Shown here in pieces: positions 2,205 to 46,180 of a DNA stretch of 64,000 nucleotides. The translations under genes and the position numbers were made by a program. Source of the DNA: Dehalococcoidia bacterium (lineage in GTDB: Bacteria; Chloroflexota; Dehalococcoidia; Plut-88900); assembly GCA_965207225.1 (NCBI GenBank), contig CBDBLV010000004.1, forward strand, positions 192,001 through 256,000. Reading direction: 5' to 3'. The notes beneath the pieces are model-generated. The model did no database searches, was not told where the DNA came from, and saw only the letters and a list, made by a program, of their open reading frames with translations. Numbering within the stretch: position 1 is the stretch's first letter; each line of letters starts with the position of its first letter.

Positions 2205-3602
2205 ATGAAGAAAGCCTACGGATATCGGGGCAAGGGGCTGACGAGGCGAAGGACCCTTATCGGGTTGTTTGCCGTGTTGGCCCTTGCCCTTTTGATTGCA
2301 GCGGCCTGCGGCGAAGCCGCAACGGCTACTCCCGAGGCCATGGAGGAACCTACAGCGGCGCCGGAGCCGACGGCAGTGCCAGACGAGCCAGATGAGCCGG
2401 GCGACGCCATGGAGCCTACCGCGATGCCGGATGAACCGGATGACGCCATGGAGCCAACGGCGATGCCAGAACCGACCGCAGCGCCTTCCACCGGCTTACG
2501 GCCCCGGGATGAGTGGACTGTTGAAAACCCGGCGACCCGGGAGGAGATTGAGGCGGAGCTGGCGAAGTACCGGGGCCAGAGCCTGGTATTCAGCTCCTGG
2601 GGCGGCGCCTACCAATCCGCCCAGCGGTCGGCCTACGGCGTACCCTTTGCCGAGATGTTCGGCATCGAGATCATCGACGACAGCCAGCCCACGGTGGGCA
2701 GGGTGAGGGCGATGCAAGAGTCGGGGAACGTGACGTGGCACGTGTTCGACACGGGCGGCGGGTCCATCCACGCCCTGGCGCGAAGCGACTCCCTGGAACA
2801 CCTGGACTTTAGCGTGATCGATACCCGGGACTTCCTAGAAGTCCTGAAAGCTCCGTACATCGGAGGCGGTGGGATCACCTGGTCCGAGACCTGGGCGTAC
2901 AATTCGGACGTATACCCTGAGGGTAGCCAGCCCCAGAACATGGCGGACATCTACGATACGGAGAAGTTCCCCGGGCGCCGGTCCTGGAACCAGTTCCCCG
3001 AAGCCGAGATCGTCTTCGTGCTCCTGTCTAAAAACCCCGAACTCTTGGATACCCCCGAGGGTCGGGGCAACCTGGCCGCTCCCAACGAGGAACAGGTAGA
3101 CCAGGCTTTTGAGCTATTCGAAGAGTACCGGGACCACCCGGACATTTTCTGGACCACAGGCTCCGACTGCCCGCAGTTCCTGATCAGCGGCGAAGCCGAC
3201 ATGTGCACCAACTGGAACGGTCGTATCTACGATGCAGCCAAGGAAGGCGCACCCCTCAAGATCTGCTGGGAGTGCGGCCACGTCCTGAACACGGACGGGT
3301 GGGGCATAATCAAGGGGCTGAAAGACCAGGACCCCGAGAAATTCGAGCTGGCACAGCTGTTCATGGCCTGGACATCCTTCCCGGAGGTCAACTCCCGGAT
3401 GGCCCAGTTCATCACCTACGGCCCCGTCAACACCAAGGCTCTGGCAGCCCTGTCAGACCCGGTTTACGACGACGTCAGGGACGAACTTCCTTCTTCGCCC
3501 TCCAACATCCCCTTCGCCATCATCAACGATGAGGTACACCGGGCGGCAAACCTGGATGCCTGGCGCGAGAGGTACGAGGAATGGAAAGGCACGCTTAACT
3601 AG
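2205..3602 (+). CDS. ABC transporter solute-binding lipoprotein, PotD-like (copy 2)
   Basis: Same motifs as copy 1. GAGGAG RBS before ATG 2205; RRR in the signal peptide; IAAC lipobox. Confidence 0.9.
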   Translation: MKKAYGYRGKGLTRRRTLIGLFAVLALALLIAAACGEAATATPEAMEEPTAAPEPTAVPDEPDEPGDAMEPTAMPDEPDDAMEPTAMPEPTAAPSTGLRPRDEWTVENPATREEIEAELAKYRGQSLVFSSWGGAYQSAQRSAYGVPFAEMFGIEIIDDSQPTVGRVRAMQESGNVTWHVFDTGGGSIHALARSDSLEHLDFSVIDTRDFLEVLKAPYIGGGGITWSETWAYNSDVYPEGSQPQNMADIYDTEKFPGRRSWNQFPEAEIVFVLLSKNPELLDTPEGRGNLAAPNEEQVDQAFELFEEYRDHPDIFWTTGSDCPQFLISGEADMCTNWNGRIYDAAKEGAPLKICWECGHVLNTDGWGIIKGLKDQDPEKFELAQLFMAWTSFPEVNSRMAQFITYGPVNTKALAALSDPVYDDVRDELPSSPSNIPFAIINDEVHRAANLDAWRERYEEWKGTLN

Positions 3603-44539: not shown

Positions 44540-44661
44540 GGTTGTGATGCGCGTCACTAACGTAACAATGATAGATGTTCCACAATCGGGATTCAAGGAA
44601 AGGGACCCGTTAGCAGATTGGTGATCTGCCGGGTTTTTCTTCAGCTGCGGGGGTTGGAGTT

Positions 44662-44715
44662 TTGATTGAACGTTGATTGAACGTTGATTGAACTCGTAGC
44701 TGTTTTGATTGAACG
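44662..44715. repeat. 11-bp direct repeats TTGATTGAAC(G), four copies
   Basis: Copies at 44662, 44673, 44684 and 44705; related TTTGATTGTTT at about 44777 and 44806. Confidence 0.85.
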
Positions 44716-44869
44716 ACGCCTAGAGGGATTTCTGGGGATTTTGCGTGGGGCGGGGTGCAAGGGGGAGGGGCGGGTCTTTGATTGTTTTGCGGTTTCAGGC
44801 ACGGCTTTGATTGTTTAAGGAAAAATCTTCTTTTGCCTATTCCCCCTTGCTCCGCATTCCGCACCGGGG

Positions 44870-44894
44870 AGGGCGATCCGCCAGTCGCCCCTAC
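44870..44894 (-). repeat. GTAG-class REP-like palindrome
   Basis: Minus strand GTAG-GGGCGA-CTGGCGGA-TCGCCC-T: a GTAG tetranucleotide followed by a short hairpin. Confidence 0.6.
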
Positions 44895-44921
44895 GGGAAG
44901 GGGAGGCCCTCCGCCCCACAG

Positions 44922-45046
44922 GGGAACCCTCTCCCCCTTGATCCCCCTCTCCCTCAGGGCCATTGAGGGAGAGGGGGAGAGAAGAACAGAGGCAAGGGCC
45001 TGCGCCCTGGCGCAGGCCCTTGCCTCTAGTTCAATACTGGGGAAGA
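44922..45046 (+). repeat. Two-hairpin interspersed repeat, copy 1
   Basis: GGGAACCCTCTCCCCCTT.ATCCCCCTCTCCC...GGGAGAGGGG.AGAGAAGAACAGAGGCA-[palindrome]-TGCCTCTAGTTCA.TACTGGGG; recurs at 45743. Confidence 0.85.
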
Positions 45047-45102
45047 GGGAGGAGTTGTTCGGTTGTGGGGTTTGGGTTTGCATTTTTCTGTTTTGGAGGG
45101 GA

Positions 45103-45627
45103 CAGGCGATGGAGGTCCGGGACTCGGATGCAGGATCTCGATGGCACCTACGCTGACGCTTGGGGCATCGGCGGCTGTCCTGCCTTTCCCTTCACGCATG
45201 CCTTGGGAGACTTGCCGCTGTCGAGGGCGTCTCTGCGTGGGGACATCCGCTCTCCGCATCAACGCTCGACCGCTGAGCGGGACGGCATATCGGCTCGAAG
45301 CCGCCGTGGGCGGAAGGAGCCGCATAAGGGCGCTAAGGCCCTGCATAACGAGTCAGAAGACTCGCGGAATTCCTCGACGAGGGTAAGGTCGGCGAGGCGT
45401 ATACGCCCGGGTGAGGGACGTCGTATCGGCAAGGGCGTCGACAGAGAGGCCTGATGCCGCATAGAGTCGATGGACCATCCATCGCCTGGAAGCCAGGGAA
45501 GGGGCACGGGACCCGTGGTGAGGAGATAATACCTTCAGCTTGAGCCTCGGGCCTGCGCGAGGGCCGTTGGGATGGGCTAGGGCGTTGAGTCCTCCGGGTC
45601 GGGTCTCGGGGGCTTCCCCGGGTTTTT
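45103..45627 (+). ncRNA. Candidate long structured non-coding RNA (rod-like fold-back plus 3' hairpins and terminator)
   Basis: Nested helices pair 45103-45226 with 45372-45488, with G-U wobbles favouring the plus strand; no credible protein ORF; hairpin plus T5 at the 3' end. No known family recognised. Confidence 0.45.
45605..45627 (+). terminator. Rho-independent terminator-like hairpin
   Basis: CTCGGGG-GCTT-CCCCGGG followed by TTTTT. Confidence 0.55.
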
Positions 45628-45646
45628 GGTTCCTCCTTTTGTTACT

Positions 45647-45698
45647 GAATTTCTGTTCGAACGCAGGATATGATAGTACCGTCGGACAGGTGTGTCAA
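45647..45698 (-). promoter_or_regulatory. Near-consensus sigma70 promoter with downstream SOS-box-like site
   Basis: Minus strand TTGACA (45698-45693), 17 bp, TATCAT (45675-45670), then CGAAC-AGAA-ATTC (45659-45647), one mismatch from GAAC-N4-GTTC. Confidence 0.6.
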
Positions 45699-45742
45699 GA
45701 GCAAATGTGCGGCTTTTGGGAGAATGTCCCCCGGCCCCCCAA

Positions 45743-45893
45743 GGGAACCCTCTCCCCCTTTATCCCCCTCTCCCCCGTATCGGGGTACGGGGGAGGCTCT
45801 TAGGGCCAAAAAGGGAGAGGGGAAGAGAAGAACAGAGGCAGACGTGGGTGCGCTGCACCCACGTCTGCCTCTAGTTCAGTACTGGGGGGAAGA
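45743..45893 (+). repeat. Two-hairpin interspersed repeat, copy 2, with a nested palindromic insert
   Basis: Same conserved blocks as 44922-45046, plus an extra CCCCGTA-TCGGGG-TACGGGG-GAGGCTC inside the first hairpin. Confidence 0.85.
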
Positions 45894-45993: not shown

Positions 45994-46180
45994 GTTGCCA
46001 AGGGGGGAAGGGGAGTCGGAGAGTGCGGTGATTCGTTAAGTCCTGGATTCCTCGCGGGGCATCGGAATGACGGGTGAGAAGGGGGTGGGGTGGGGGTGGG
46101 GGTGGTCCGCCCGTATGAGAGGGGGAGAGGGAGAGTTATGTTGACCACCCCCGAGCGCTGTGCTACAAAGGGGGCCGCCA

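Follow-up and report, generated by a model that had tools for sequence, protein, structure and literature searches.

What kind of element occupies positions 45103–45627 of the Dehalococcoidia bacterium DNA analysed here, a stretch of 64,000 nt (the window) from contig CBDBLV010000004.1? The original prediction, made from the letters of the window, described a single plus-strand RNA of ~525 nt with a long rod and a branched head, either a new class of large non-coding RNA (ncRNA) or a folded single-stranded DNA element. We found that this core lies inside an intergenic repeat unit (~44977–45698), with the minus-strand orientation favoured, and that sequence comparison places the unit in a genus-wide family of intergenic units, each complete unit having a conserved minus-strand promoter and the family as a whole being a mosaic with exchange of segments. 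The reading that we prefer, with slightly less than even confidence, is that the element is a free-standing minus-strand gene for a modular structured ncRNA of ~600–700 nt, which would comprise a Shine-Dalgarno (SD)-like 5′ stabiliser, a frame and an exchangeable cartridge, and would terminate in dependence on Rho or on a companion repeat termed M2.

A family of intergenic units with a conserved minus-strand promoter

The outermost helix of the predicted fold, here called P1, was located exactly where it had been described, with CAGGCGATGGAGGTCC at 45103–45118 facing GGACCATCCATCGCCTG at 45472–45488. Homologue searches with BLAST and nhmmer returned many copies from the genome of origin and from its relatives in the genus: the own assembly of 4.03 Mb holds 73 matching pieces by BLAST and 41 places by nhmmer. 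A covariance model of the conserved frame (R1) detected the element in 9/9 genus genomes, with 23–70 copies in each (41 in the own genome, ~420 in total), and had no match in three other genomes of the same order; BLAST likewise found the element in 8/8 genomes of the genus, in 0/3 other genera of the family and in 0/29 other families sampled. The 22-nt motif of the P1 arm (up to 3 mismatches) occurs 9–26 times in each of the nine genus genomes, and among the other 392 genomes of the class seven have a single match with 3 mismatches, a frequency close to that of the control pattern read backwards. The host lineage is one uncultured Dehalococcoidia genus of soil bacteria, and 73 of the 74 exact matches of the 22-mer fall in closed Dehalococcoidia bacterium genomes (metagenome-assembled genomes, MAGs). 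The only exact match outside the genus (L114:5607–5628) is on a 15-kb contig labelled Kribbella sp., which has no other part of the element; it sits there in an unrelated, hairpin-rich context of actinobacterial appearance and probably arose by chance, even though few exact 22-mer matches would be expected. An isolated RNA of 525 nt was therefore not borne out, since the stretch is one of 41 copies in its genome and conservation crosses both of its borders, continuing for ~70 nt of G/T-rich sequence past the left border and for ~70–90 nt past the T-run on the right.

The unit is intergenic, ~0.6–0.9 kb long and a mosaic of modules. Its conserved stretch in the window runs from ~45040 to ~45700, with a separated left-end piece at 44600–44655, and the P1 arms are internal to it, conserved sequence going on for ~70 nt leftward and ~200 nt rightward of them. 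Copies were assembled from 99 matches of the 5′ arm motif in the own genome and 74 loci of relatives; 88 of the 99 had a matching 3′ arm 300–437 nt off, never farther, and 84 also had the end motif GGTTCCTCCTT. These 84, with both P1 arms and the GGTTCCTCCTT end, are called complete copies below, and the definition drops 15 of the 99 arm matches. P1 is a helix of 15–16 bp common to all three sequence types into which the 88 P1-closed domains cluster (57, 25 and 6 members). The window's copy is in the cluster of 25 (type A), which itself consists of two subtypes that nearly agree in their 5′ half and diverge in their 3′ half, and the inner domain, as judged from these alignments, comes in at least three unrelated versions. 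The frame domain varies from 68 to 219 nt across copies, with conserved blocks and optional hairpins between them, and hairpins are swapped for other hairpins or lengthened at their tips from one copy to another.

In 84/84 complete copies the pattern TTGAC[A/T/C/G]-N16-18-TAnnnT was present on the minus strand, 40–60 nt beyond the end motif and pointing into the element, compared with 0/84 on the other strand, 11/84 when the segments were read backwards and a mean of 1.95/84 in shuffles. The −35 TTGAC is invariant and the −35/−10 spacing is always 16–18 nt, and the spacers themselves have diverged into 62 distinct sequences, those of 17 nt with a mean pairwise identity of 0.56. Hexamers and spacing kept across spacers so diverged are, at the level of sequence, the strongest sign of function that we found. 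A plus-strand promoter upstream of the element, sought with a looser pattern, was seen in only 2/82 copies, both ~150 nt away. Because the promoter is on the minus strand in 84/84 copies and on the plus strand in 2/82, the minus strand is most likely the one transcribed; the strand call rests on the promoter, since folding and pair statistics are undecided. Within 25 nt past the −10, 73/84 copies have one of two 8-bp palindromes, GTTCGAAC or GTCTAGAC (at most 1 mismatch), and this start-site palindrome may serve as an operator or mark a site of processing. The SD-like motif AAGGAGG lies 29–36 nt past the −10 in the 81 copies measured; the motif is part of the definition of a complete copy, and its presence in those copies is circular. 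No ATG, GTG or TTG occurs in the 40 nt past AAGGAGG in the window copy, and none was seen by eye in 24 aligned copies.

Fold, coding potential and termination of the predicted RNA

By its sequence the region is non-coding. Stop codons interrupt all six frames, and the indels between copies are not multiples of three. Translations of the window's inner domain, read through stop codons, gave nothing significant against PHROGs (six frames) or Pfam (three minus-strand frames), nor did those of the type C inner domain (Pfam in three frames, PHROGs in one), which has a nearly open minus-strand frame of 93 codons; NCBIfam and PDB searches of translations had no match, and the sole protein match listed up to E 1 was one PHROG (E 0.28) to a plus-strand frame. 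Two open reading frames (ORFs) of the window, at 44610–45083 on the minus strand (157 aa) and at 44963–45454 on the plus strand (163 aa), lie wholly on repeat DNA; similar ORFs appear at other copies only because the DNA repeats, and gene callers are likely to annotate the two as hypothetical proteins.

The 541-nt stretch 45095–45635 was folded on both strands and its minimum free energy (MFE) compared with 100 dinucleotide shuffles. The plus strand reached −265.6 kcal/mol (shuffles −243.7 ± 7.1; z = −3.10; 1/100 shuffles equally good) and the minus strand −233.7 kcal/mol (shuffles −200.5 ± 6.8; z = −4.86; 0/100). Rfam gave no match at gathering score across the whole window, and of 87 weak matches at E ≤ 10 none lay inside 45103–45627; five further loci with other versions of the element also had no match in Rfam 15. 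The families without a match include GOLLD, ROOL, OLE, HEARO, raiA, the group II intron, RNase P, tmRNA, SRP and 6S. The proposal of a new large ncRNA class is still the reading we favour, in modified form: absence of coding, absence of an Rfam family and folding better than shuffles were upheld, and the strand, the status as a single gene and the rod were not.

All the inner pairs named for the rod could be located, namely GACTC (45121) with GAGTC (45464), TGACGCTT (45154) with GGGCGTCG (45433), ATGCCTTG (45198) with CGAGGCGT (45393), CTTGCC (45211) with GGTAAG (45382) and TGTCGAGG (45219) with CCTCGACG (45372), as could the hairpins at 45327 and 45349. How far they are conserved was read from alignment A1, which holds the 23 type-A copies. 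P1 is paired in 93.5% of cells and carries no covariation information, because it never varies in these copies, and the GACTC/GAGTC helix is paired in 89.6%. The four long-range helices are only 72–75% paired, because they are broken in ~11 copies that share the 5′ half and differ in the 3′ half, and the long rod is thus not conserved. The two named local hairpins are kept (99% and 82% paired), the second with changes on both sides in 11 copies. Folds of single copies agree on P1, on the short helix next to it and on many local hairpins, and differ from copy to copy in the long-range helices. Since P1 and the local hairpins are kept and the rod helices are variable, the conserved architecture, as far as alignments can define it, is a bundle of hairpins closed by P1 rather than a rod.

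For the frame, a minus-strand model over 70 distinct copies has 97.0% of its cells paired, against 39–62% when the partners are slid, and 6 of its 31 pairs have changes on both sides, a number reached by 13 of 500 shuffles. AAGGAGG pairs in this model with a CCUUCC block, and the C/U alternation in that block (G-C 50/G-U 20 at one pair, G-U 48/G-C 22 at another) would amount to C-A mismatches on the plus strand.

Past P1 the minus-strand RNA would enter a tail of unusual composition, its first 60 nt averaging A 41.5%, C 37.8%, G 12.7% and U 8.0% in 81 copies, with a median MFE of −1.8 kcal/mol, where stretches of 60 nt in the body have −17.0 kcal/mol. An RNA that begins at the predicted start and includes the whole tail would measure ~600 nt (range 462–721). 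The genome encodes Rho (C5:468395) and RNase J, and the tail is a candidate rut site, being C-rich, G-poor and unstructured within a predicted ncRNA of a host with a Rho gene. Within 320 nt past P1, 12/81 copies have a minus-strand terminator with a perfect stem and 12/81, not necessarily the same ones, an M2 repeat. The window copy is among those with a terminator: minus-strand terminator hairpins flank its unit at 45873–45833 upstream and at 45028–44987 downstream, and the latter, an M2 hairpin, would end its RNA at ~680 nt.

Taken together, these features suggest the following course of events. Transcription of the minus strand would start ~7 nt past TATCAT, giving in the window an RNA from ~45663 to ~44980. 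By analogy with known 5′ stabilisers, AAGGAGG, ~25 nt from the 5′ end, probably acts in the manner of a STAB-SD, a bound 30S subunit or pairing with an internal CCUUCC/CUCCUC shielding the RNA from RNase J. The body would fold into the frame and the P1-closed cartridge, and the unstructured, C-rich and G-poor tail would load Rho, as rut sites do, so that the RNA ends shortly past it; the window copy would instead end at its M2 hairpin. Failed termination would result in read-through into the next gene, which is co-directional in ~80% of copies, and the two plus-strand hairpin/T-run sites of the unit may shield it from antisense transcription. It is our guess that the RNA is a common scaffold presenting alternative cartridges and that it acts as RNA rather than through DNA. 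A more far-reaching version, which we regard as speculative and improbable, takes promoter, SD-like cap, frame, invariant 15-bp P1 and Rho-loading tail as a constant chassis on which cartridges of ~350 nt are swapped by recombination at the P1 arms. Such an arrangement, with 23–70 genes per genome, would amount to a cassette system at the RNA level that has no described counterpart, and its cartridges could be specificity or assembly modules of one ribonucleoprotein or of an RNA-only machine.

Segment exchange and competing explanations

Comparison between species indicates that these are old copies which have kept their places. The best identity between copies within a genome is 94%, with no near-identical copies, and 17 of 18 elements of the closest species (G008) have an own-genome element at the orthologous site, a share that is lower in more distant species; under stricter rules 36 syntenic element pairs were obtained. 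Syntenic elements are less alike than their flanks (84.3% vs 98.1% at L107, 84.8% vs 96.8% at L053). When the L053 copy of G008 is set against its own-genome counterpart (C4:443xxx), identity of ~97–99% extends over left flank, leader and P1 arm, breaks off at the inner domain, where one species has type B and the other type C, and returns at the second P1 arm; between L107 and the own C3:345xxx, the form of the frame and the promoter module differ. Since the syntenic flanks are near-identical and the inner segments different, whole segments have been traded between copies. At the locus of the window copy, the arrangement is shared by G008 (84% identity for the element and 93% for the left flank), and G007 keeps both flanking genes with only a decayed relic of ~220 nt between them (L127 ~3040–3260). 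In the relic the P1 arms have shrunk to a short hairpin, CCTCC has become CCTCT and the terminator hairpin is eroded; a promoter-like TTGACC-17-TAATTT is still present. One further site is occupied in G003, where the flanks are 918 nt apart, and unoccupied in the own genome, where they are 63 nt apart, and no target duplication was visible at this one filled/empty site examined.

Several results weigh against a free-standing minus-strand gene. The 84 complete copies with the promoter were preselected for both P1 arms and GGTTCCTCCTT, leaving out 15 of the 99 5′ arm matches. Two steps of the mechanism, the STAB-SD and the Rho step, are analogies. Alignment A4 was fitted to the frame model, which biases its pair counts; covariation is modest and the copies, from nine related genomes, are not independent, and because much of the covariation traces to a few subtype splits, relatedness could explain it. 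Pair statistics favour neither strand. The original prediction had taken G-U pairs as the signature of a plus-strand fold, a claim that fails on the helices common to the folds of both strands, where plus-strand G-U and A-C pairs number 2380 vs 1965, 8 vs 12 and 3 vs 7; the excess seen earlier arose because the plus strand is G-rich (G 198, C 150) and the helices had been picked on it. On one helix, AGGGAAG/CTTCCCT, the count does lean to the plus strand (12 G-U vs 5 A-C). The same strand has slightly better Alifold values (−118.1/−68.4 vs −107.8/−56.6 for the minus strand) and a better consensus fold of the frame domain (−28.6 with 42 pairs vs −22.25 with 31 pairs), and the two well-formed plus-strand hairpin/T-run terminators would also be explained by a plus-strand RNA. 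Past the element, 69/81 copies have no intrinsic minus-strand terminator. Finally, selfish intergenic repeats typically show what is seen here: presence that varies between species, a mosaic build and other repeats close by.

These points lend the rival accounts unequal support. A plus-strand ncRNA of ~525 nt ending at 45605–45627, as first proposed, would account for the good hairpin and T-run at its 3′ end, which were indeed found there and on the plus strand only, for the lower plus-strand energies and for the conserved G-U pairs in the plus-strand frame consensus; we nevertheless consider it very improbable, given that only 2/82 copies have a plus-strand promoter, that a second plus-strand hairpin/T-run at the left border would stop incoming transcripts, that a G/U-rich strand lowers folding energies by itself and that the conserved sequence runs past the terminator into the minus-strand promoter. 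A serious contender, doubtful as we hold it to be, is a mobile promoter-plus-leader cassette with a role in cis, in which the unit would be a structured, stabilised leader for the next gene, read-through would be set by Rho or by folding, and dozens of unrelated genes would be co-controlled. The orientation of neighbouring genes, determined on ORFs filtered by third-position G+C content (GC3) in place of a crude count on ORFs of ≥200 aa (24/40), fits such a cassette, the exit-side gene being co-directional with the minus-strand RNA in 61/76 copies (21/24 in the own genome) and the promoter-side gene randomly oriented (32:32). The end of the unit is mostly 52–600 nt from a start codon, the scarcity of intrinsic minus-strand terminators would permit read-through, and a 5′ AAGGAGG with a C-rich tail would suit a stabiliser and an attenuator. 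However, the unit points toward a convergent gene's 3′ end in 15/76 copies, several downstream genes retain their own −35/−10 between the unit and the start codon, the orientation bias could stem from selection against antisense read-through, and an exchangeable domain of 350 nt has no obvious use in a leader. In the window, a strong terminator (45028–44987) and ~400 nt of other repeats separate the unit from ccmA, which has its own promoter-like site.

Unlikely in our judgement, yet likewise a serious rival, is a selfish or neutral mosaic repeat resembling BIME, BOX or Correia elements, made of DNA palindromes homogenised by recombination and with promoter and terminators as side effects. The element has the hallmarks of the BIME/BOX type of mosaic, being multicopy, confined to one genus, intergenic and built of interchangeable modules, and it is accompanied by the repeat families M1, M2 and M3; the filled and empty sites between species and the decayed relic in G007 fit as well, and the strand-symmetric pair statistics are what DNA palindromes would give. 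Yet a promoter kept in every complete copy while its spacers fall to 0.56 identity argues for selection on transcription, even if gene conversion from a few selected copies could mimic such conservation. The 94% ceiling on identity within a genome and the synteny with the closest species also stand against this account, as does the lack of a transposase partner, of terminal inverted repeats and of a target duplication at the one filled/empty site, and at ~0.6–0.9 kb the unit greatly exceeds BOX and Correia repeats in size. Hardly any weight is left for decayed protein-coding or phage DNA, or for a non-autonomous derivative of IS200/IS605, IscB or retron type. The nearly open frame of type C would fit a coding past; against it, Pfam, PHROGs, NCBIfam and PDB gave no significant match, the 22-mer is absent from viral contigs, phage and plasmid records show no similarity, no P1-closed insert exceeds 437 nt and the sequence types are not inversions of each other. 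The genome (92% complete) shows no Y1 transposase (IS200/RAYT) and no TnpB, which leaves the proposed single-stranded DNA element unsupported, and its four reverse-transcriptase (RT) genes do not recur among ORFs within 3.5 kb of the 41 copies.

Other candidate origins were rejected in turn. An inverton is contradicted by the lack of reverse-strand similarity between or within the three types beyond local palindromes of 41 nt. A fuzzy search for an autonomous parent, allowing P1 arms to be separated by at most 4 kb, yielded a single long pair (1645 nt), which lay within ordinary genes and was due to chance. A miniature inverted-repeat transposable element (MITE) or other non-autonomous insertion sequence (IS) was discarded for want of terminal inverted repeats, of a target duplication, of any insert above 437 nt among the 88 and of a recurrent neighbour protein; relatives of IS200/IS605 (REPIN, PATE, TnpB omega-RNA), for want of any match to PF01797 or PF07282 in the own genome; and a phage or plasmid origin, for want of matches in viral contigs and in phage and plasmid records. 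The original prediction had suggested looking among the neighbours for reverse transcriptases, nucleases or transposases, and no protein was found to recur: within 3.5 kb of 41 copies real proteins are shared by at most three loci, and the neighbour clusters present in 7–11 loci are spurious ORFs on the repeat itself. A retron or other RT-associated ncRNA was rejected on the same ground, as none of the four RT genes is among the recurrent ORFs. Two of these RT ORFs have 586 aa and identical Pfam scores (G000, C2:158087–158773 and C5:1548409–1549095), the other two 641 and 652 aa; they may be group II introns or other retroelements.

Relation to known systems and remaining features

The closest systems in kind are the large ornate ncRNAs and the promoter-bearing intergenic repeats, and the element differs from both in size, copy number, internal promoter and swappable domain. 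GOLLD, ROOL and OLE are described as large "ornate" bacterial ncRNAs of unknown function (PMC12286853). The element resembles them in being several hundred nucleotides long, densely hairpinned, non-coding and lineage-restricted, and departs from them in its 23–70 copies per genome (against one or few), its exchangeable inner domain, its promoter at each copy and the absence of an Rfam model match. Covariation support for GOLLD, ROOL and OLE is much stronger than for the element. Correia and BOX/RUP elements span ~100–300 bp. The Correia repeat-enclosed elements of Neisseria (PMC2649163) and the pneumococcal BOX/RUP repeats (PMC3049150) are dispersed and intergenic like the element and can supply promoters; the likeness extends to inverted repeats, a modular core, folding of transcripts, effects on expression of adjacent genes and presence that differs between genomes. 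Those repeats make promoters at their ends, whereas the complete internal promoter of the element reads the whole unit of 0.6–0.9 kb, and the inverted repeat P1 is internal rather than terminal, with no target duplication seen.

A STAB-SD is reportedly the 5′ mRNA stabiliser of Bacillus thuringiensis cry3A, said to have been described by Agaisse and Lereclus in 1996. The element shares with it a perfect AAGGAGG near the 5′ end without a start codon at translating distance, in a host that encodes RNase J, and differs in that the motif heads an ncRNA family instead of one mRNA and can pair with an internal CCUUCC/CUCCUC. SD-bound ribosomes block RNase J1 on hbs mRNA, according to a further report (PMC5737220). 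Multicopy structured RNAs of a few hundred nucleotides, with many copies lacking an adjacent gene, are also known as the HEARO/IscB omega-RNA and the TnpB omega-RNA; unlike these, the element has no Rfam HEARO match, no recurrent neighbour protein and no TnpB or Y1 in its genome, and its promoter and SD-like motif are at the 5′ rather than the 3′ end of the RNA. Searches of the literature on Dehalococcoidia repeats, large ncRNAs, intergenic repeats and STAB-SD, at the level of listings and abstracts, turned up no account of the element.

If the minus-strand RNA is real and functional, it would be a rare case of a large multicopy bacterial ncRNA with its own promoter and an exchangeable structured domain, and would add a new architecture, from an uncultured soil lineage, to the few large bacterial RNAs of unknown function. 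If the unit is a leader instead, it would be a dispersed element through which dozens of unrelated genes come to share a single promoter, stabiliser and attenuator. Either way, ~1–2% of these genomes consists of such repeats, which should be annotated as repeats or RNA genes and not left blank or as spurious ORFs.

Table 1. Features of the unit in the window, listed from the promoter end
Feature	Position	Strand	Basis or remark
Promoter, sigma-70-type	−35 TTGACA 45698–45693, 17-nt spacer, −10 TATCAT 45675–45670	minus	11/12 consensus matches
Predicted transcription start	near 45663	minus	deduced from the −10
8-bp palindrome GTTCGAAC	45655–45662	minus	at or just past the predicted start
Shine-Dalgarno-like AAGGAGG	45632–45638	minus	~25 nt from the predicted 5′ end; no start codon follows
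G+C hairpin and T-run	45605–45627	plus	terminator on the plus strand only; within the 5′ frame domain of the minus-strand RNA
Frame domain, blocks GGGAAGGGGCACGGGACCC, TGAGGAGAT, TTGGGATGGGCTAGGGCGTTGAGTCCTC (plus-strand letters)	45489–45631	minus	covariance model R1, copy alignments
P1 3′ arm, GGACC-A-TCCATCGCCTG	45472–45488	plus-strand reading	invariant in 23/23 type-A copies
Inner domain, type A subtype A1, enclosed by P1, hairpin-rich, exchangeable	45119–45471	minus	cluster and swap evidence
P1 5′ arm, CAGGCGATGGAGGTCC	45103–45118	plus-strand reading	motif repeated across the genus
C/A-rich, G-poor unstructured tail, candidate Rho loading site	45040–45102	minus	composition and MFE
Terminator-like 19-bp hairpin and TTCTTCTCTC, within inserted palindromic repeat M2	44977–45028 (hairpin 45028–44987)	minus	
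Left-end module: hairpin, T-run and TTCTTCAGCTGCGGGGG	44600–44655	plus	split off by inserted M1 and M2 (44656–45050)

The window copy is flanked by the minus-strand genes ccmA-ccmB-ccmC-ccmE and by a CoA-ligase-like gene in plus-strand orientation. Among the companion repeats, M2 (~140 nt) occurs in the window at 44905–45050 and 45720–45890 and consists of CCCTCTCCCCC...GGGAGAGGGG arms followed by the 19-bp G+C hairpin and TTCTTCTCT; both of its hairpins here score as minus-strand terminators. It has at least 47 matches in the own genome (40 of 153 candidates scored), and its copy number at the window's locus differs between G000 and G008. Four copies of TTGATTGAAC lie at 44662–44714, three of them in an 11-nt tandem (chance expectation 0.05), and a TTGATTGAAC block followed by TGACGCCTAAAGGGA stands upstream of 7/9 best copies in the genome; by its sequence the block looks like a protein-binding or iteron-like module. 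At 46045–46071 there is a third small repeat, a hairpin GGATTCC-N12-GGAATGAC, and similar units are found beside many other copies.

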